Shown here: piece after piece, positions 14,731-57,486 of the stretch
Layout: each line of letters begins with the position of its first letter
Position numbering within the stretch: position 1 is the first letter of the stretch
Source: an uncultured archaeon
GTDB taxonomy: Archaea; Aenigmatarchaeota; Aenigmatarchaeia; PWEA01; JAGHBM01
Length of the DNA: 64,000 nucleotides
Assembly: GCA_964640225.1 (NCBI GenBank)
Contig: CAZXFI010000003.1
Coordinates: 3,442 to 67,441 of the forward strand
Reading direction: 5' to 3'
Program-made: the position numbers and the translations under genes
Notes under the pieces: model-generated
Database searches by the model: none
What the model was told of the DNA's origin: nothing
What the model saw: the letters and a program-made list of their open reading frames with translations, nothing else

Positions 14731-15450
14731 TCATCCAAATCCCCTCTTTAACATTCCCTTGAGCTCTGTTAAATTTCTTGTTTTAGTCATCGCCAGAACT
14801 ATTCCCTCTATTCCCGCTATCCTCCTGGCCACCTCGTCCACCTTTTCTGGCCCATGGAGTATTACGAGTGAGGGTTTTAGGTTTGTCACCTTTATGGCAA
14901 CCATTGAAGACCTTCCTGTGGTTACGTTTGAGAATATAAGCGCCCTGTTGGTTGTAAACCCGTATATTTTGACCAATTCCATCGGGGTTAGCTCCATTAT
15001 GGCTTTCATTGAATCAACAAGCGAGTAGCCGTATATCTCGTTCTCTAGTAAATCTTCCCTTGAGACCACCATGCAGTTTGTTTTCTCGCAAAAATCCCCT
15101 ATTGAAACAGGGTATTTAAATTCCTTTATATCAAGAATGCTTGAAAGTAGAAAATTTTCTCCTGAAAGCGTGTAAAACTCCCTTAAAAATTCGGCTCCCT
15201 TCCTTTCGGAAATTTTTATAAGGGAATTGACTATGTTGTTTATTATTTTTATTCCCGGTGAAGACCTTCTGTTGCTTTCATAATCAGATATTACAGAAGG
15301 TGTGACCTTCATTTCATCTGCAATTTCCTTTTGAGAAACTTTGAAAATATTTCTCCATTTTTTTATAACCGAGCCTGGTTTTTGGGACAGGACTATTTCT
15401 CCACAAATTCTCTTAACTAAATTCTCTTTTATTAAATCTTTTTCATTCAT
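14731..15450 (-). CDS. HTH (XRE-type) transcriptional regulator, archaeal COG1395-like
   Basis: HTH motif VSQKEIADEMKVTPSVISDYE followed by a C-terminal domain. Confidence 0.55.
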   Translation of the reverse strand: MNEKDLIKENLVKRICGEIVLSQKPGSVIKKWRNIFKVSQKEIADEMKVTPSVISDYESNRRSSPGIKIINNIVNSLIKISERKGAEFLREFYTLSGENFLLSSILDIKEFKYPVSIGDFCEKTNCMVVSREDLLENEIYGYSLVDSMKAIMELTPMELVKIYGFTTNRALIFSNVTTGRSSMVAIKVTNLKPSLVILHGPEKVDEVARRIAGIEGIVLAMTKTRNLTELKGMLKRGFG

Positions 15451-15727
15451 AAGTTATTTATTGTCGAAATAAATATAAATAAATGTCGTATATACCCTGA
15501 GACGTTTGTTTCTTATGGAGATTTTTTATTTTTAATAGGTTTATAATATAATATATAACAGTGTTATATCATAGTTAGTAGTAGTAATAAGAAATTCCAA
15601 AGGAAATAGAGGGGTGTCTTATTCACACCCCTTTATTTCACGTGCAAATTCACACCCCTTTATTTCACGTGCAGATATGTATTTATAAATTCAAACTCTA
15701 TATGAAAGAAAGGGGGGTTGGTTTCAT
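15451..15727. promoter_or_regulatory. Candidate replication origin (oriC) upstream of orc1/cdc6
   Basis: A ~130 bp AT-rich stretch (candidate DUE, 15.47-15.60 kb) is followed by ORB-like elements of the form dyad CACGTG + GAAA + G-string. All lie immediately 5' of orc1/cdc6. Confidence 0.55.
15622..15673. repeat. Tandem 25-nt ORB-like elements. An inverted half-site lies at 15611-15631.
   Basis: TTCACACCCCTTTATTTCACGTGCA occurs twice with a 27-bp period. On the bottom strand it reads CACGTGAAATAAAGGGGTGTGAA. GGGGTGT / ACACCCC form an inverted repeat. Confidence 0.6.
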
Positions 15728-16915
15728 TTGCAAAAATCTTTGGAGTCTATTTTCAATGGTTATGTAAATAAAAGAAAGATTTTTACTAACAAAAAAGCAA
15801 TAACAATTTCCTACAAACCCAACGAGCTTCCACACAGAAACAGGGAAATAGAGAGCGTGGCTTCAATTTTAGGCCCAAGTTTAAGTGGGGAGAAACCCTC
15901 CAATGTATTTATATTCGGGAAGCCCGGAACAGGCAAAACTGCCGTGATTCACCTAATATCAAAAAAACTCACTAAGATGAGCAAAAAAAACGTGGGCCTG
16001 TTTTATCTTAATTGTAAAATGAGGAATGTGGCCGACACGGAATATAGGCTAATCGCGCAGCTTGCAAGAGAGCTCGGTGAGTTCGTTCCTGTCACAGGTC
16101 TCCCAACGGACCATGTTTACAACCTGTTCTTCAAGGCCTTGGACAAACGAGGCGGGGTTATTATTCTAATACTGGATGAAATAGACGTGCTTGTTGAAAA
16201 AATAGGGGACAACTTCCTTTATAACTTGACAAGAATAAACGAGGAGCTCAATAACACCCAGGTAAGTATAGTGGGAATTTCAAACAACCTGTCCTTCACG
16301 AACGACATGGATCCCCGCGTGAAGTCTTCACTTTCTGAGGAGGAGCTAATATTCCACCCTTACAATGCAATACAGCTGCAGGATATTTTAAGAAAGAGGT
16401 CCGAGGGGGCCTTCAAGGAAAACACCTTGGAGCCGGGTGTGATAGAAAAGTGCGCGGGACTGGCTGCCCAGGAGCACGGGGACGCCAGGAGGGCGCTGGA
16501 CCTGCTCAGAGTGGCCGCCGAGATAGCGGAAAGAGAAAGTTCGGAAAGGGTTATGGAGAAGCACGTTGACATGGCGGAGTCAAAAATAGACAAGGACAGG
16601 ATAGTAGAAATAGTAAAATCCCAACCCAGGCAGAGCCAGGCAGTCTTGTGGAGTATAATGAAGACAGGAGGCGAGATTCAGACGGGGGATATATTTTCTG
16701 TTTACGAAAAAATATGCGCCGAAAACGGCCTCAAGCCCCTGACGCACAGAAGGGTTTCCGACCTGATAGCGGAGCTGGATATGCTGGGAATAATAAGTGC
16801 CAGGGTTGTCAGCAAGGGCAGGTATGGAAGGACGAGAATAGTCAAGATGAGCCTCCAGGATTCTCTTTTAGGCAAAATAAGGGAAATACTGCAGACAAAA
16901 TATTACTTCCAGTGA
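15728..16915 (+). CDS. orc1: Orc1/Cdc6 replication initiator
   Basis: AAA+ Walker A GKPGTGKTA, Walker B LDEIDV, and a C-terminal winged helix. Confidence 0.85.
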   Translation: MQKSLESIFNGYVNKRKIFTNKKAITISYKPNELPHRNREIESVASILGPSLSGEKPSNVFIFGKPGTGKTAVIHLISKKLTKMSKKNVGLFYLNCKMRNVADTEYRLIAQLARELGEFVPVTGLPTDHVYNLFFKALDKRGGVIILILDEIDVLVEKIGDNFLYNLTRINEELNNTQVSIVGISNNLSFTNDMDPRVKSSLSEEELIFHPYNAIQLQDILRKRSEGAFKENTLEPGVIEKCAGLAAQEHGDARRALDLLRVAAEIAERESSERVMEKHVDMAESKIDKDRIVEIVKSQPRQSQAVLWSIMKTGGEIQTGDIFSVYEKICAENGLKPLTHRRVSDLIAELDMLGIISARVVSKGRYGRTRIVKMSLQDSLLGKIREILQTKYYFQ

Positions 16916-16919
16916 TTTT

Positions 16920-17927
16920 ATGGATTTGGTTAAGGATTTTTTAGACAAGGGAATTCTGCTGTCCCCGGGGGTGGTAGGCAAGGTTAAAAAAAAGGACCTG
17001 AAGGAAATAACGAAAAAAATGGGCAGGAAAGTCGTGGTAACGGGAGAGGTATTGTGCGCGGTCAGGGGAACGGGAGTGGAAATATTAAGAGAGCATAAGA
17101 AACTGGATGAAACAAAAAGAATAACGGAATTTGTTGATTTTTACAACAAAAGGTTTGAATTTTTGCGCGGATTGCTGGAGGAAAAACTGGAAATTGAGAA
17201 AATAACATCCATAAACAAACTTAACACAGGCAGAGTCACGGTCATAGGAATGGTAAGGGAAATAAATGATAAGGGGTTTAAGATAGAGGACTCCACGGGT
17301 TCTGTTTTTTGCAGGTCAGATGAAAGGCTTTTGGAGGACGAGGTTGTGGCGGTTGCGGGGAATTTTGACAGGAAAGACCTCTGCGCCGAAAAAATAATCT
17401 ACCCGGACATACCCCTTAACAAAAAAATAAATCTGACGAAGGAAGACTGCCGTGTGTTGTTCACAAAAAAACTCACCAAGGAGCCTTCACATGAACCTTC
17501 ACATATATTCACGTTTGATTTAAACCCGGAAATTTTGGGGAGCATTTCAGCAGAAATTATAACGAAAAAAGAGGGCCTGAAAAAAGGCCCCGGAAGGACA
17601 GGCCTTGGGCTACCATCTCTCTTGGAAATAAGCGGGGTGAAGATTTTTGTTTTTGAGAACAAGGAAATGGAAGAAATAAAGAAGAAAACGGAAATCAAAG
17701 ACGAGAAAAATCTAATTACCTCGCTCCTGAAAAGAAGGCACCTGCTTCCGCATGTTTACACGGAAGGCGACCCGTATCTGCTGAAGGATATACCAGACAT
17801 AATATTTTTCTCCGGGGGAAAGGAAAGTTTCTTCCTGAATTACAAGGGGGTTTCAATCGTTTCGGTTGCAGGAAAGGAAAGCTTTTTGGTAAACCTGAAA
17901 ACAAGGGATTATGAGGAGTTGGAATGA
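16920..17927 (+). CDS. Truncated DP1-like (PolD small-subunit / B-subunit-like) protein. It keeps the N-terminal domain, OB fold and C-terminal tail but lacks the phosphoesterase catalytic core.
   Basis: The MDLVKDFLDKGILLSP N-terminus and OB segment (IEDSTGSVF...VVAVAG) resemble DP1. The C-terminal LLKRRHLLP...DPYLL..IPDIIFFSGG...YKGVSIVSVAG is collinear with the DP1 tail RHVAP..DP..L...PD..HMGHVH...YRGV.LVNS, with the His residues replaced. Confidence 0.45.
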   Translation: MDLVKDFLDKGILLSPGVVGKVKKKDLKEITKKMGRKVVVTGEVLCAVRGTGVEILREHKKLDETKRITEFVDFYNKRFEFLRGLLEEKLEIEKITSINKLNTGRVTVIGMVREINDKGFKIEDSTGSVFCRSDERLLEDEVVAVAGNFDRKDLCAEKIIYPDIPLNKKINLTKEDCRVLFTKKLTKEPSHEPSHIFTFDLNPEILGSISAEIITKKEGLKKGPGRTGLGLPSLLEISGVKIFVFENKEMEEIKKKTEIKDEKNLITSLLKRRHLLPHVYTEGDPYLLKDIPDIIFFSGGKESFFLNYKGVSIVSVAGKESFLVNLKTRDYEELE

Positions 17928-18535: not shown

Positions 18536-18600
18536 AACAATATGCTGCAGAACAAATTAATTTTTATAGCTTAATGTTCATTACTTTGTTGGGGTTGAAA

Positions 18601-21267
18601 ATGGAGTTGCAGGTTCTTGACGCCGATTACACGTTGCTTAATGAAAAACCAATAGTAAGAGTTTTCTGCAAGGATTCTACGGGGAAGGTTTTTTGTGTTT
18701 TTAAAAGGGGTGTGGAACCTTACTTCTATGCGCTGGGGGAAACGGATGAGATAAAGGAGAAACTCAAGAAATTTGAAGGCGAAATACAGAGAGTGGAGGA
18801 AGTAGAAAGGTTCCTTCCGGTGGGCTACCAGGAAAAGAAAACAAAAGTCCTTAAAATAACCAACAGAAACCCCTCCAAGGTTCCCGCCATAAGGGAAACC
18901 CTGGGGTGCAGGGTTTTTGAGGCGGACATTCTTTTCAAGTACAGGTTCTTCTCGGACACAGGCATAAAAGGCATGAACTGGATAGAAGTTGAGGGAGATT
19001 TTGTCAACACAAACACGGTCTCTTGTACGGGAATTGAAGCAAAAAAGATAAAACCAAAAAACAAGGAGGAAAACATTCCTTTAAAAATTATGGCCCTGGA
19101 CATAGAGACAGAGGCGCCGTCGGACAGGATGCCGGAGCCGGACAAGGACGCGATAACCATGATAAGCCTGGCCTTCTCGGAGGATTACAAAAAGGAGAAA
19201 GACATGGTTATAGTCTCAAAACATGTCATGCTCAGGGACGACCAGAAAAATAATACAATATGCACGGATAACGAGAAAAAAATGCTGGAAAAACTCAAGG
19301 ATGTGATAAACGACTACGACCCCGATGTAATAACAGGATACAACATACAGAACTTTGACATGCCCTTTATTGTCGGCAGGATGGACAAGTCCGGCGTCAA
19401 GAAGGACTTCGGAAGGGCAAAGGACAAGAACGTTTTTTGCAGCAAGTATGGTCCAATCTCCAACACGAACATGTCAGGAAGAATAGTCTCCGATTCCTAC
19501 CAAATTATCAAAAAAGACTTCTCCTTCAAGAGCTACAAGCTGGACAACGTAGCGGAAAAGCTTCTGGGCAAGAAAAAAATTGACATAAGCTACAAAGATT
19601 TTGAAAGGCTGTGGAACGGGAGAAAAGAGGGTGTTCAAAAACTCATAGATTACGCGAGAAAAGACTCAATACTGGCGCTGGACCTTGTGAAAAAGAAGAA
19701 CCTCCTTGACAAGTACATAGCTCTTTCAAGGGTTTCCGGAATACTGCTTCAGGATGCTCTGAACGGGGGAGAGTCAATAAGAATAGAAAACGTTTTGCTC
19801 TCCGAGTTCAACAAGAGAGGCCTACTTTTCCCTCCCAAGCCAAGCGACAGGGAGGTTATGGAAAGGGCGAATAGAAGGGAGAAGAGCGGACTGAAGGGGG
19901 GGCTTGTTCTGGAGCCGAGGGCGGGACTTCATACCGACGGATGCATACTTGTTCTGGACTTCAAGAGCCTTTACCCAAGCATAATAAGGACTTACAATAT
20001 ATGCCCCACAACGCTTCTCAAAGAAAATTTGGATGTGGAATACAGCACTTCCCCGCTTGGAATAAAGTTCGTGAAAAGCAGCGTAAAGGAAGGCATACTT
20101 CCCCACGTGCTGGAGAACCTGATAAACCAGAGATCCCTTGTCAAGAAAAAAATGCACGAGGAAAGGGATGCGGACAAGAAGAGACTGCTTTACGCCAAAC
20201 AGTGGGCCCTTAAAATACTGGCCAACGCCTTTTACGGTTATACGGGGTATCTCAGGGCAAAAACCTACGTCATGGAGGTGGCCAACACAATAACCGCCTT
20301 TGGTAGGGAATTGCTGCAAAGAACCAGAAAGGAAATAACCGACATGGGTTACGAGGTTGTATACGGGGACACGGACTCGGTTTTTGTTAAAGCGGACACC
20401 AAGGACCTTGAAAAGGCGTACAAGCTGGGAAACCGGATAGTAAGCAAGATAGACTTACCCGGAAAACTTGTCCTGGAATTTGAGAAAATATTCCGCTCGT
20501 TTCTTATATTGACCAAAAAAAGGTACGCCGGATGGAGCTTTGAGAAAAACAACGGCGACTGGTCGGACAAAATAGAGATGAAGGGAATAGAAACTGTGAG
20601 GAGGGACTGGCCAGACCTTGTAACGGAGAGCATGAATGTGGTGCTTAACATAATCCTGAAGGAAGGCAACGTCAAAAAGGCGATAGCCTACGTCCAGGGA
20701 GAGGTTGACAAGCTCAACGCGGGAACAGTGAACCTTAAAAAGCTCGCGGTCACAAAGAGCATAACAAAAAGCGTGGACAGGTATGACGGCATGCTGCCGC
20801 ACATAGAGCTGGCCAAAAAGATAAGTCAGAGGAATCCCTCCCAGACTCCTTCCCCGGGGACCAGGATATCTTACATCATAATAAGGGGCAACCAGATGCT
20901 GAGTAAGAGAGCCGAAGAGCCCGAGTACATAAACGAGCACAAGCTGAACATAGACTCCTGTTATTACATAGAGAACCAGCTTTTGCCCCCACTTGAAAGA
21001 ATATTTTCCGTGATAGGCGTTGACAAGGGAGAGCTTATGGGCAAGGGGAGGCAGTGCAACCTGAAGGACATGCTGAAGCCCGCCAAGAGAAACCATAAAA
21101 TAGAGATACCCCCGGAAAAAATTATCGTAAAGTCCCCCGAAGGATTCGTCTGCAGGAACTGCAACAAGAATTTCAGAAGGGTCCCTCTTGTGGGTAGGTG
21201 TGATTGCGGGGGAGAGATTCTGGCCTTTGCTCGGGGGAATATGGGTTTTCTTATAAAACTAAATTAA
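18601..21267 (+). CDS. polB: Family B DNA polymerase (PolB) with a C-terminal Zn-ribbon extension
   Basis: Exo I LDIETE. Pol motifs DFKSLYPSII, KILANAFYGYTGY, YGDTDS. A ~85-aa tail after the thumb carries CRNC...CDCGG. ATG 18601 is preferred. Confidence 0.85.
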   Translation: MELQVLDADYTLLNEKPIVRVFCKDSTGKVFCVFKRGVEPYFYALGETDEIKEKLKKFEGEIQRVEEVERFLPVGYQEKKTKVLKITNRNPSKVPAIRETLGCRVFEADILFKYRFFSDTGIKGMNWIEVEGDFVNTNTVSCTGIEAKKIKPKNKEENIPLKIMALDIETEAPSDRMPEPDKDAITMISLAFSEDYKKEKDMVIVSKHVMLRDDQKNNTICTDNEKKMLEKLKDVINDYDPDVITGYNIQNFDMPFIVGRMDKSGVKKDFGRAKDKNVFCSKYGPISNTNMSGRIVSDSYQIIKKDFSFKSYKLDNVAEKLLGKKKIDISYKDFERLWNGRKEGVQKLIDYARKDSILALDLVKKKNLLDKYIALSRVSGILLQDALNGGESIRIENVLLSEFNKRGLLFPPKPSDREVMERANRREKSGLKGGLVLEPRAGLHTDGCILVLDFKSLYPSIIRTYNICPTTLLKENLDVEYSTSPLGIKFVKSSVKEGILPHVLENLINQRSLVKKKMHEERDADKKRLLYAKQWALKILANAFYGYTGYLRAKTYVMEVANTITAFGRELLQRTRKEITDMGYEVVYGDTDSVFVKADTKDLEKAYKLGNRIVSKIDLPGKLVLEFEKIFRSFLILTKKRYAGWSFEKNNGDWSDKIEMKGIETVRRDWPDLVTESMNVVLNIILKEGNVKKAIAYVQGEVDKLNAGTVNLKKLAVTKSITKSVDRYDGMLPHIELAKKISQRNPSQTPSPGTRISYIIIRGNQMLSKRAEEPEYINEHKLNIDSCYYIENQLLPPLERIFSVIGVDKGELMGKGRQCNLKDMLKPAKRNHKIEIPPEKIIVKSPEGFVCRNCNKNFRRVPLVGRCDCGGEILAFARGNMGFLIKLN

Positions 21268-23712: not shown

Positions 23713-23837
23713 CCTTTTATAACACTGTTATATCACTTTAAATAACTTTCAGGATAAATTTATCAAGGCCCGTCTCGATCAGCTCTCGGAAAGGCCTGTG
23801 GGCCCTTATGAAAAAGAGTGTTATGGGCGGGTCACAA

Positions 23838-31788: not shown

Positions 31789-32663
31789 AAATAATGTCAA
31801 TAATAGGGACGCTGATAGGAATTCTGATAACCGTTTCCTTTGTTCTTTTCAGGACGTTTGCCATATCCACCGAGTCCGTTATGATTTATCCGATGGTTTT
31901 CTTCAACGATTTTATTTCAACGAGTGCGTCCGCCGGATCCTCCGAGGCCATGATTTCCTCCATTCTCAGTCCGCTGACCTTTATAGCACCCTTCATACCC
32001 CTCGCGCTTGGTTTTTCGGTCCTGATATTCTACGGAATAAAATACGGCGAAGACAGGAAATTCGGGCTTGTTGTCACACTTGTGCCCTCGCTAATCGGGA
32101 TAGTCCTTCTGGGCCCCTCGCTGACTTCCGTTTTGTTTGCTCTGGCCCTGGCGGTGTCCGGAGTCCTTTGCACCCCGATAGCCGTAATGTACCTCAAGGA
32201 GCTGAAAAAGTTCAGGAGATACAGGATAGGTTCAAGAACAATGGGCAAGCTTTTCTTTTTCATCAATCTGGTGCTTTTTTTCGCGCTTCTTATTAACGTG
32301 ACTTACGGCGCGGATAACTATAACCAAATTTACTCGGAAGAAATGAAAGGCTTTATAATGGAGATGCTGCCTGACGTGGATACGGGAGACATGCCGGAAA
32401 TTGAGGGGTTTGACCTGCTTCCGCCAGAACAGCAGCAGGAGATAATGGAGCAGTATTCAGAGTTAACGGAGTCGCAGAAAGAGATGGTTGAGTCAAGAAT
32501 GGAAAGCATGGTGGAGTCCGAAAACATCTCAGCCATGATAAGCCTTCTTGTTTTCATAACCCCTATGATGGTTTTTGCGGTTCTTGAGATGCTAAGGATA
32601 GTTTTGCTGTCCCCCCTGGCAGGGTTCGCCTCAAGCGTTTCCCTGCCCGAGCTGAAAAATTAG
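31773..32663 (+). CDS. Polytopic membrane protein, hypothetical
   Basis: Several TM helices and an acidic coiled segment. Overlaps the upstream gene's end. Confidence 0.4.
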   Translation: MEEKIKIMSIIGTLIGILITVSFVLFRTFAISTESVMIYPMVFFNDFISTSASAGSSEAMISSILSPLTFIAPFIPLALGFSVLIFYGIKYGEDRKFGLVVTLVPSLIGIVLLGPSLTSVLFALALAVSGVLCTPIAVMYLKELKKFRRYRIGSRTMGKLFFFINLVLFFALLINVTYGADNYNQIYSEEMKGFIMEMLPDVDTGDMPEIEGFDLLPPEQQQEIMEQYSELTESQKEMVESRMESMVESENISAMISLLVFITPMMVFAVLEMLRIVLLSPLAGFASSVSLPELKN

Positions 32664-32989
32664 ACAATCTTGTCCACAAGGCCTTTCTTCCTTATGTACT
32701 TGCAGATGCAGCATATTTCATCCGTTGCTTCGTGGAATGTTATTTCGTTTTTCGCAAGGGACCTGGAAATATCAGATATATTCCTGTTTACTTCGGAATC
32801 CTCCTCAAGAGCCTTCGCCCTGTAGCCCCTTGTGTGCTTCTTGTACTGGGAAACCGCGGGCTGCGTCATGCCGAGCTTTTTGGCGGCCTCCTCCTGGGTC
32901 ATCTTGTGGACCTCTATAAGGTCCCGGGCCACGAGTGCCCTCAAGGCCGGAACAACATAAAGGCTCATTATCTCGCACACGGGTTTCAT
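32660..32989 (-). CDS. HTH transcriptional regulator with a C-terminal Cys cluster
   Basis: HTH motif MTQEEAAKKLGMTQPAVSQY. Confidence 0.5.
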   Translation of the reverse strand: MKPVCEIMSLYVVPALRALVARDLIEVHKMTQEEAAKKLGMTQPAVSQYKKHTRGYRAKALEEDSEVNRNISDISRSLAKNEITFHEATDEICCICKYIRKKGLVDKIV

Positions 32990-33099
32990 GAAATCTCCAA
33001 ATACAATTGCCCGGTGAAATATTTAAATATAACATTGTTATAAAATACTCGGGCTTTGCTCCGAAGTAATTTTTTTGACAACTTTAGGAGCAAAGCCAA

Positions 33100-55514: not shown

Positions 55515-55681
55515 AATATACTTTATAATATATATTTTTAAAAATATATTTTATAATATATCTATAATAAAACATATAATAAATAAAAACTATTAAAAAA
55601 TATATTTTATAAAATATATAATAAAAAAAATATAATAAACTTATAAATACTCTGGAAACAAAATAATAGGTAGGTGAAAAT
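55515..55681. repeat. Extremely AT-rich, low-complexity island (about 10% GC)
   Basis: ATATATTTTATAA-type motifs are repeated. Confidence 0.4.
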
Positions 55682-56071
55682 GTGAGGGGTGCGCCTGGAA
55701 AAAAGGAGCAGAAAAACAACTACAAGGAGCTTTTTTTCAAATTCAAGCCGGTTGAAATGCTGGTGTTCCTTAAAAAGGGAATGGGCCCAAAATACGCCAC
55801 ACAGGTCTCAAAAGGCGTGGATTGCACGTATTCCCACACCATAAAAGTTCTGGAAAAATTCAAGGACCTGGGCCTGGTTATTTTCAAGAAAAAAGGAAGA
55901 ATAAAGATGATACAGCTCACCCCAAACGGCGAGGAGATAGCCCATGATTTTGAGGGGTTGGGAAGAAAGTTTGAAAGGGCGGACTCCGAGAAAGACACCA
56001 AGAAAAAGGAAGACAAGAAAGCCGAGAAAAAGAGTGAAAGCGGCAAGGGAAAGAAAAACCCAAAAAATTAG
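55682..56071 (+). CDS. Winged-helix protein with a Lys-rich C-terminal tail
   Basis: wHTH (ATQVSKGVDCTYSHTIKVLEKF..KKKGRIKMIQLT) followed by a KKKEDKKAEKK tail. Confidence 0.4.
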   Translation: MRGAPGKKEQKNNYKELFFKFKPVEMLVFLKKGMGPKYATQVSKGVDCTYSHTIKVLEKFKDLGLVIFKKKGRIKMIQLTPNGEEIAHDFEGLGRKFERADSEKDTKKKEDKKAEKKSESGKGKKNPKN

Positions 56072-56240: not shown

Positions 56241-56711
56241 ATGGAAAAACCCACCCCGCCCAATGAAAAAAGGTTAAAATCCAAGGAGTCCTTGTATTAT
56301 CCTTCGGTACTCGGCGGCAAATGGAAGACGCTTGACCCTGATGTAAGGTGGGATTTAAGTGACGTAATAAACCACGTTTTCCCCCGAGAATACCAGGAAA
56401 AATCCAATGAATACGCGCAAAAACTAATGGAATTTTTGTTTCTCAACCCAGGGGGAATTGACAAAAAAATGCTGTCGGAATTCGTGAAAGGCCATAATTT
56501 GCCCGTTTCAACACTATATAACATTGTTATACCAAAACTCGTGAAATTGGGCATGGTGGAAAGAAGGCGCGAGCCAAACGCCTCAAATCCCGGGAAGGGC
56601 TGGTTCCTTATTCTCAAACCCTCTGTTTCGTTTTCTTCCCATTTGATCAAACTGGCGGGCGAGTGGAGGTCGCTGTACAAAACAGCATACTCCAAAGAGC
56701 ATAATGAATAA
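56241..56711 (+). CDS. Hypothetical protein with a wHTH-like segment
   Basis: STLYNIVIPKLVKLGMVERR recognition-helix-like segment. Confidence 0.35.
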   Translation: MEKPTPPNEKRLKSKESLYYPSVLGGKWKTLDPDVRWDLSDVINHVFPREYQEKSNEYAQKLMEFLFLNPGGIDKKMLSEFVKGHNLPVSTLYNIVIPKLVKLGMVERRREPNASNPGKGWFLILKPSVSFSSHLIKLAGEWRSLYKTAYSKEHNE

Positions 56712-56960
56712 TATATTTTTAAAAGATTTTTTTGTAAAATATATAATATAAAAGTTATAATTAAATAGTTATTTTAAATAATATATTTTACATTATATAT
56801 ATTATACAATATAGAAAAAATCACACAAAAATGTGAGACTTCAGGACCCAGACTCACAAGCCAAAAGAGCCCAGAATGCAAAATATGAGGTTTTAAGGCC
56901 TTTTTGATGCGTTATTAAAGTATCTTTATATAATTAAACTACCAAGAAAAAAAGAGGAAA
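56712..56960. repeat. Second AT-rich island sharing the ATATATTTTA(T/C)A motif
   Basis: Low-complexity AT DNA upstream of tRNA-Gln. Confidence 0.4.
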
Positions 56961-56961
56961 T

Positions 56962-57131
56962 AGCCCCGTAGTCTAGTGGCCAAAGGAAGTTGACATATAC
57001 GAGGTATATGTTTGTGCAATCTTTCGGTTATGGATGGGAGGCTCTGGACCTCCAGACCCAGGTTCGAATAAGCTTTTTTCTAAAAAGCTTAAGCAAAAAC
57101 TTAAAAAACGAGAGTCCTGGCGGGGCTACCA
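56962..57131 (+). tRNA. tRNA-Gln (anticodon CUG) with two non-canonical introns (D-arm and T-loop)
   Basis: Acceptor AGCCCCG/CGGGGCT, discriminator A, encoded CCA. Anticodon arm GGAGG-CTCTGGA-CCTCC at 57037-57053. T-arm CCAGG-TTCGAAT-[46-nt intron 57070-57115]-CCTGG. A ~48-nt insert sits between the D-stem halves. Confidence 0.6.
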
Positions 57132-57153
57132 TTTGTTTTAAGGGGGTACAAAA

Positions 57154-57486
57154 ATGAGGATAGACAAATTTTCTTTCGGCCAGATTGTGCTAAAGGGAAA
57201 GAAATACGACCACGACGTGTTTGTGACTAACAAATCCGTTGAGGAGAAAGAGAGCAGCCACGAGATTACCAGGGACGACATAGACAGGGCCCTGTTTCTT
57301 GAGCCGGATTTAATAATTATAGGAAAAGGAACAAGTGGCATGGTTGAGATTCCAGAAGAAATAAAGGCCATGGTGGCCCGGAACAAGGTAAGGCTGATAG
57401 AAGGAAATACCCCGGATGTTATAAAAGATTTTAATAAATTGAGCGCCAAGAATAAAATCGTGGGTATATTTCACCTTACTTGCTAG
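57154..57486 (+). CDS. Mth938-like domain protein (DUF498)
   Basis: Collinear with MTH938, ending in FHLTC. Confidence 0.65.
   Translation: MRIDKFSFGQIVLKGKKYDHDVFVTNKSVEEKESSHEITRDDIDRALFLEPDLIIIGKGTSGMVEIPEEIKAMVARNKVRLIEGNTPDVIKDFNKLSAKNKIVGIFHLTC

Follow-up and report, generated by a model that had tools for sequence, protein, structure and literature searches.

In this work we describe a 277-bp intergenic gap (positions 15451-15727) in a 64,000-nucleotide stretch of archaeal DNA, hereafter the window, which we consider likely, with a probability of roughly 0.8, to be a chromosomal replication origin of the oriC1 type from a member of the Aenigmatarchaeota (DPANN). The gap separates two divergent genes, a helix-turn-helix (HTH) gene of the HTH_3 family on its left (minus strand) and orc1/cdc6 on its right (plus strand). 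An original prediction, made from the letters alone, had proposed an oriC here, and at the level of sequence this is supported by an initiator of Orc1-1 type, several origin recognition boxes (ORBs), an inverted pair of these boxes around an AT-rich duplex unwinding element (DUE), and conservation among relatives. To our knowledge no DPANN origin has so far been dissected, and none has been described in detail in the Aenigmatarchaeota. By convention, DPANN genomes are rotated to orc1 (bioRxiv 10.64898/2026.05.13.725050). The elements on which the argument turns are:

15495..15521, minus strand: ORB-L, the left DUE-flanking ORB (bottom strand TCTCCATAAGAAACAAACGTCTCAGGG), with its dyad beside the DUE and a weak G-string
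15522..15594: AT-rich DUE, 73 bp, ~84% AT, between the inverted ORBs
15553..15569: central palindrome ATATAACAGTGTTATAT, core TATAACAnTGTTATA, centre 15561, a candidate accessory-protein site
~15573..15590: short tandem microrepeat (TAG)n/(TAA)n, between the palindrome and ORB-R1
15595..15618, plus strand: ORB-R1, the right DUE-flanking ORB (TTCCAAAGGAAATAGAGGGGTGTC), with its dyad beside the DUE
15621..15647, minus strand: ORB-R2, first tandem repeat (bottom strand TTGCACGTGAAATAAAGGGGTGTGAAT), head-to-head with R1
15648..15674, minus strand: ORB-R3, second tandem repeat, abutting the putative B recognition element (BRE) and TATA box of orc1
15682..15689, plus strand: putative orc1 TATA box TTTATAAA, with TTTATAA invariant in ten genomes
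15696..15718, plus strand: ORB-like R4 (CTCTATATGAAAGAAAGGGGGGT), part of the orc1 5' leader, with a G-run that doubles as the Shine-Dalgarno element
15728..16915, plus strand: orc1/cdc6 initiator gene of Orc1-1 type, 395 amino acids (aa), TTG start, Pfam Cdc6_lid and Cdc6_C
32660..32989, minus strand: 109-aa HTH gene, with a palindrome copy (33028-33042) directly upstream of its TATA element TTTAAATA

Relatives of the orc1 product are annotated as Candidatus Aenigmatarchaeota or Aenigmarchaeota, a DPANN phylum, and the nearest species representatives share 79-80% Orc1 identity with it, one of them being a closed chromosome of 832,879 bp (CP070662.1). Neighbourhoods of orc1 were taken from 14 further Aenigmatarchaeota contigs (Orc1 identity 57-83%; individual loci carry labels such as L001), and the comparative set comprises 12 non-redundant loci, the window included, in which positions were measured from the palindrome centre. 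An alignment of ten gaps from ten genomes (A1; mean column identity 69%) underlies all statements on invariant bases, and a wider set comprises 61 more distant DPANN loci (Woese-, Pace-, Nano-, Iainarchaeota and others; Orc1 identity 40-55%). The same order and spacing of elements was found in the 12 Aenigmatarchaeota loci, and the gap measures 276-297 bp in those that keep the HTH neighbour at such spacing (L081-L086). Invariant columns of the alignment fall into discrete blocks, namely the ORB cores, the palindrome, the TATA box and the leader, and the flanks of the DUE vary.

The initiator gene begins 54 bp after the second tandem repeat, at a TTG codon (15728), in line with the distance of about 55 bp given originally; the aligned start codon is ATG in L084-L086, and nine of the 12 loci have the start at +162 to +170 relative to the palindrome centre, with L002 at +177. 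Its product matches the NCBIfam ORC1-type family (1.2e-147) and, among proteins of known structure, S. solfataricus Orc1-1 (2qby_A, E 1e-100) and A. pernix ORC1 (2v1u_A, E 3e-98), followed by Orc1-3 (2qby_B, E 4e-42) and an Orc1-2-type protein (1w5s, E 8e-17). Both of the best-matching proteins were crystallised on ORB DNA, and their alignments to the window protein are full-length, with the segment DPRVKSSL in the AAA+ domain and the wing GRYG(K/R)T in the winged-helix domain both retained; the window initiator is thus an Orc1-1 orthologue. It is the Orc1-1 paralogue that defines the widely conserved oriC1 (PMC12141716).

Only three exact matches to the full ORB pattern CANNNGAAATNNNGGGGT exist in the 64 kb, namely R1, R2 and R3, each with a dyad, GAAA and a G-string and all of them within 75 bp, and there are four matches when one mismatch is allowed (0.61 expected); ORB-L and R4 fit the core only. 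The DUE is flanked by ORB-L and ORB-R1, which are of opposite polarity and have a common invariant core, TCCA-N3-GAAA, in opposite orientation, with their dyad ends facing the 73-bp spacer and their G-strings pointing outward. ORB-L, which went unnoticed in the original prediction, has its core TCCANNNGAAAC at 15508-15519 on the minus strand; the bases TC.A...GAAA are invariant, and the element lies at -43 to -55 from the palindrome centre in 11 of the 12 loci. ORB-R1 is invariant at TCCA...GAAA...GGGGT, and its core is found at +36 to +43 in all 12. A facing GGGGTGT...ACACCCC half-site had been noted at this position; it exists, and is really a complete plus-strand ORB, TTCCAAAGGAAATAGAGGGGTGTC, at 15595-15618.

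The two 25-nt direct repeats first reported are exact (15622-15646 and 15649-15673), their 27-nt units match at 26 of 27 positions, and the duplication is beyond chance, with none of 100 dinucleotide shuffles matching it even when three mismatches were allowed. Their proposed bottom-strand reading in terms of CACGTG and ORB logic was borne out as TGCACGTGAAATAAAGGGGTGTGAAT. These repeats, R2 and R3, are not the DUE-flanking pair; they are located between ORB-R1 and the orc1 promoter. R2, the least conserved of the ORBs, is present in seven of ten close relatives and degenerate in L026, L082 and L086, and is probably auxiliary. R3, in which ATTTCACGTGCAG and ACCCC are invariant, is found at +106 to +112 from the palindrome centre in Aenigmatarchaeota loci and at a fixed distance of 7-8 bp from the TATA box in all ten genomes. 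R4 forms inverted repeats with both R2 and R3, and its core TC.A...GAA is invariant, with a full ORB core (CTCCATAAGAAAT) at this place in L002. R3 and R4 stand inverted around the orc1 TATA box, only 21 bp apart, and from the position of that box transcription would start near 15710. The R1 element of L001, CTCCAGTGGAAATAAAGGGGT, is the textbook form of the ORB, and the R3-equivalent elements of L088 read CTCCATACGAAAC and CTCCACACGAAGC; these forms argue that CACGTG in the window is a lineage variant of the ORB dyad, and not a separate E-box-type site. Two additional ORB-like sequences were set aside. A possible sixth ORB, TTGCAGATGAAATGAAGGTCACACC (~15296-15320), lies in the HTH coding region without a G-string and encodes the conserved peptide KEIADEMKVT, so that its conservation is attributed to coding and it was not counted; a match at 57351, considered as a second origin, falls within a coding region and has no partner.

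Between the inverted ORBs, positions 15525-15593 are 84.1% AT, and the best 70-bp window (15521-15590) reaches 85.7%. The ~130-bp stretch of >85% AT claimed at the outset was overstated, as 15470-15600 is 78.6% AT and only the 70-bp core attains the higher figure. Outside the palindrome the sequence of the DUE is poorly conserved in relatives, yet it stays A/T-rich and similar in length. In 7 of the 12 origins (the window, L001, L002, L003, L082, L083 and L087) a perfect tandem run of a 3-4-nt unit, 11-17 nt long, occurs at a fixed position between the palindrome and ORB-R1, with a unit that differs per genome (TAG, TTAG, TACT, ATTT, AAGT, TAGT, ATAC); here position is conserved and sequence is not, and slippage at an initiation site is a possible origin of such runs.

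The most conserved element of the gap is the palindrome in the middle of the DUE. Fifteen of its 17 columns are invariant while its flanks vary, with TATATAAC..TGTTATA common to the ten genomes, and it is present in every Aenigmatarchaeota origin examined, including the most divergent, L087 and L088, in which the gaps are otherwise rearranged. Measured to the inner edges of the two ORBs, its centre is 40 bp away from ORB-L and 34 bp away from ORB-R1, and 9 of the 12 loci keep it at a nearly fixed 37-39 bp from ORB-R1. None of the 61 DPANN loci from outside the Aenigmatarchaeota contains it. Within the window, TATAACAnTGTTATA occurs in four exact copies (15554, 23718, 33028 and 56517), three of them intergenic, where 0.11 matches would be expected even with two mismatches allowed. 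The copy at 23718 stands just upstream of TTTAAATA, ahead of a gene pair encoding a DUF167 protein and a Toprim (DnaG-like) protein, and that at 56517 is inside a small open reading frame (ORF).

The copy at 33028 points to a candidate binding protein, the product of the 109-aa HTH gene at whose promoter it stands. Homologues of this gene in L089, L090 and L091 (53-68% identity) each have a promoter palindrome (L089 1449, L090 1415, L091 965 and 1495), which abuts TTTAAATA exactly as in the window in two of the three. The family search returned 17 clusters (P0121-P0137), the named ones mainly from Aenigmatarchaeota metagenome-assembled genomes. The predicted structure (mean predicted local distance difference test score, pLDDT, 90.5) is all-helical, with a recognition helix LGMTQPAVSQY, and neither sequence nor fold gave a significant relative in the PDB (best fold E 0.38), for which reason no family name is given. 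Cys93-x-x-Cys96 is invariant in the family, His52 nearly so, and Cys5 (in MKPxCE) is found in all full-length members; together these residues could form a metal or redox-sensing site. The palindromic form of the motif suggests a dimeric binder, and on the simplest reading of the sequences a dimeric HTH protein would regulate its own gene and have a further site at the centre of the origin.

ORBs bind Orc1 monomers with defined polarity, and ORBs of opposite polarity flanking a DUE set the initiators face to face (PMC6742236), with MCM being loaded onto the DNA between them (PMC6742236; PMC12141716). From the arrangement described here we infer a similar course of events, in which monomers of the Orc1-1-type initiator would bind the ORBs with fixed polarity and those on ORB-L and ORB-R1 would, by analogy with Sulfolobus oriC1, face each other. 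The facing pair would recruit two MCM hexamers, and melting and bidirectional synthesis would begin in the intervening DNA; 73-85 bp is about the length of two head-to-head hexamers. For R2, R3 and R4 the likeliest role is autoregulation of orc1 by its own product, with Orc1 bound at R3/R4 competing with TBP/TFB, and these elements may add cooperative loading of the initiator. The palindrome most likely holds a dimeric accessory DNA-binding protein, for which the 109-aa HTH protein is the best candidate, and such a protein would act at the meeting point of the two helicases, on the model of ucm and UBP in Sulfolobus. That the palindrome has a role in replication, as opposed to a purely transcriptional one, is a suggestion that we hold to be less likely than not.

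Several observations limit the origin reading or weigh against parts of it. Across the 64 kb, GC and AT skew changes sign near 15 kb but also at several other places, tracking gene orientation, and so speaks neither for nor against an origin. The DUE is less AT-rich than two other blocks of the window, near 55.5 and 56.7 kb (95-97%), so AT-richness alone does not single out an origin site. ORB-L has only a weak G-string, CGTCTCAGGG, and by count its short core is unremarkable in the window (3 matches against 1.8 expected), so that its status as an ORB rests on position and conservation. The winged-helix domain of the initiator is reportedly placed at the dyad end of the ORB in the crystal-structure papers of 2007, and it is if this placement is right that the geometry at ORB-L and ORB-R1 is the canonical one. 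The proposed binder of the palindrome is assigned from promoter co-occurrence only, and the 239-aa HTH protein encoded next to the gap is an alternative candidate, its own promoter carrying different boxes (TGTCG). In addition, Thermococcus kodakarensis dispenses with a canonical oriC and with Cdc6 (PMC5663688), and a canonical sequence hence does not prove origin use.

The T. kodakarensis case lends itself to a view of the gap as a shared regulatory region only, in which the ORB-like boxes would be Orc1 operators and the palindrome an ordinary operator, with replication starting elsewhere or otherwise, for example by a recombination-dependent route. The bracketing of the orc1 TATA box by R3 and R4 at fixed distance speaks for this, as does the presence of the palindrome at promoters elsewhere (33028 and 23718), both adjoining TTTAAATA. 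However, ORB-L and ORB-R1 lie 100-170 bp away from either start codon, and the spacer between them, AT-rich and conserved in length but not in sequence, has the signature of a DUE and is not operator-like. A like enrichment of ORBs is seen upstream of orc1 across DPANN, and origin function and regulation are in any case compatible, the orc1-1 gene adjoining oriC1 in Sulfolobus; we therefore regard regulation without origin function as improbable. Still less probable is that the locus is the origin of an integrated plasmid or virus carrying its own orc1. Archaeal mobile elements often carry orc1 genes, and GC content falls to 0.38-0.40 around 14-17 kb from ~0.47 overall. Yet the window initiator belongs to the conserved Orc1-1 clade, its gene has core genes for neighbours (SecD/F, Hjc, DP1-like, PolB), synteny of the whole block extends to relatives with as little as 57% Orc1 identity and takes in the closed 833-kb chromosome, and no integrase, tRNA or repeat borders were seen near the orc1 block in the window. 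A last rival takes the repeats for the work of chance, or for a terminator hairpin with a T-rich run after GGGGTGT...ACACCCC; a terminator scan does flag AGGGGTGTGAATAAGACACCCCT and CTATTTCCTT on the minus strand, but no minus-strand gene ends upstream of this hairpin and orc1 is on the plus strand, while the hairpin arms belong to two complete ORBs, as the inverted repeat formed by the G-strings of R1 and R2. With a chance expectation of zero for the 25-mer duplication and conservation of the repeat elements in 10-12 genomes, this rival is effectively refuted by conservation and gene orientation.

As a chromosomal origin of oriC1 type, the locus most closely recalls that of Sulfolobus and Saccharolobus (ORB3-DUE-ORB2), which likewise has an adjacent Orc1-1-type initiator gene, inverted ORBs around an AT-rich DUE of similar size, and a further ORB outside. 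The extra ORBs of the window differ in being tandem and in abutting the orc1 promoter. Linker scanning of Sulfolobus oriC1 showed that ORB2, ORB3 and an 11-bp motif within the DUE, ucm, located midway between the two ORBs, are each essential (PMC12141716). The protein that recognizes ucm, UBP, is a beta-rich saddle protein of 111 aa and binds DNA as a monomer, at ucm and at more than 300 other sites, mostly intergenic; it contacts MCM's N-terminal domains and seems to be needed for helicase exit (PMC12141716). UBP is confined to Sulfolobales and Desulfurococcales, and its discoverers ask about analogues in other lineages (PMC12141716). The window palindrome resembles ucm as a short conserved motif in the middle of the DUE and, as far as 64 kb of the genome can show, in recurring elsewhere, mostly in intergenic DNA. 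Going by the published description, it is set apart from the 11-bp site of a UBP monomer as a perfect palindrome of 15-17 bp, and the all-helical HTH candidate appears unrelated to the beta-rich saddle of UBP. We therefore treat the palindrome as a possible analogue of ucm, and not as a member of the ucm/UBP type.

Among other archaea, Pyrococcus has a cdc6-DP1-DP2 cluster beside its oriC. In Pyrococcus and other Thermococcales, as in the window, the origin lies directly upstream of orc1/cdc6, with a DP1-family gene and a replicative polymerase gene following, and the Pyrococcus ORB consensus is nearly the same as that of the phylum described here, the form quoted above for L001 being an example. 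The window differs in having few ORBs (4-5) in place of many mini-ORBs, in its central palindrome, and in that its polymerase is PolB and not DP2. In Aeropyrum pernix, oriC1 has four ORBs in two inverted pairs around the DUE. The crystallised ORC1 of that species (ORC1-ORB4, 2V1U) is closely similar to the window initiator, and both origins have several ORBs in opposed orientations; in the window the arrangement is asymmetric, a single left-hand ORB standing against three to four right-hand ones. The absence of DP2 from Aenigmatarchaeota, with DP1 paired with a PolB that carries a DP2-type C-terminal domain, has already been published (PMC12680538).

Beyond the Aenigmatarchaeota, the ORB core YCCANNNGRAA occurs in the 61 DPANN loci at 3.6/kb in the 500 bp upstream of orc1 and at 0.32/kb elsewhere, an 11-fold enrichment, from which ORB-type origins beside orc1 appear general in DPANN, with the window locus as one instance. 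In the loci L004-L080 (Woese-, Pace- and Nanoarchaeota) a very conserved minus-strand ORB, TTCCATAAGAAACCATAGGGTCACA, is found ~260-420 bp upstream of orc1, and further ORB cores at ~-200 and ~-98, which suggests an origin layout shared within DPANN, with details unlike those of the Aenigmatarchaeota.

Judged by its elements, the locus appears to be an ordinary, textbook type of origin in an unstudied phylum, and our analysis provides a base-level map of ORBs, DUE and promoters that is valid across the phylum and, for the ORB cores, across DPANN. Of greater use is the palindrome at the centre of the DUE, as it offers a concrete candidate site and a candidate protein for the question of Bell and colleagues on ucm/UBP analogues (PMC12141716), both open to in vitro work with recombinant proteins although the organism is uncultivated. 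More speculatively, and with the odds in our view against it, the Aenigmatarchaeota may have evolved a mid-origin module of their own, independently of ucm/UBP, consisting of the DUE palindrome and a dimeric 109-aa HTH protein that would autoregulate, bind other promoters and couple initiation or helicase release to a cellular signal. If this were true, archaeal origins would repeatedly and convergently have come to hold a sequence-specific factor between the two loaded helicases.

The following features adjoin the origin:

14731..15450, minus strand: gene for a 239-aa HTH_3 (XRE-type) regulator, Pfam HTH_3 2.8e-07
15462..15488: putative promoter/operator of the 239-aa HTH gene, with TGTCG boxes at 15462-15466 and 15484-15488 around a TATA-like element
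16920..17927, plus strand: DP1-like polymerase B-subunit gene, 335 aa, arranged with orc1 in the manner of an operon
18574..21267, plus strand: family B DNA polymerase gene, 897 aa, Pfam DNA_pol_B 7e-107

The gene order, HTH, origin gap, orc1, DP1-like, (HAD) and PolB, is kept in relatives, with a HAD hydrolase gene sitting between the DP1-like and PolB genes in the window, where genes for SecD/F and Hjc are also found among the neighbours of orc1. In almost all relatives the 239-aa HTH gene borders the origin on its left, occupying the same place in L081-L086 and L088. The 335-aa protein has no Pfam match; it matches the NCBIfam PolD small subunit (8.7e-27), and its predicted structure (pLDDT 87.5) resembles by fold Pyrococcus abyssi DP1 (E 5e-19) and human Pol delta p50 (2e-16), so that by family match and fold the product is a compact homologue of DP1 and the polymerase B-subunit. 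Rfam and ARAGORN, run on the window, gave no RNA gene in the 277-bp gap, and a sigma-70 promoter scan of the window gave matches at chance level only.

In the promoter of the 239-aa HTH gene, the distance of ~26 bp between the ATG and an A/T TATA-like element (~15473-15483) implies that the mRNA is leaderless. The TGTCG boxes around this element are direct, 22 bp apart, and form a paired-box pattern that occurs once in the 64-kb window; TTGTCGnAA...ATATAAATA...TGTCGTA is kept in nine of ten aligned relatives. These boxes are probably the regulator's own operator.

At a distance from the origin, two blocks of 95-97% AT (55515-55655 and 56711-56835), each of ~130 bp, have a 14-nt periodicity and stand in loosely inverted orientation. 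Between them lie two small winged-helix-like ORFs (55682-56071 and 56241-56711) beside an intron-containing tRNA gene, and blocks and ORFs together may be a small integrated element. The blocks were considered as an ORB-type origin and rejected, with no ORB motifs nearby. The tRNA gene, missed by both ARAGORN and Rfam, is a probable tRNA-Gln(CUG) at ~56963-57133 (plus strand), interrupted in its D-arm and T-loop regions by one long non-canonical intron each; GCCCCGU and GCGGGGC form the acceptor halves, an encoded CCA comes after them, and the RNA fold has a z-score of -3.4.

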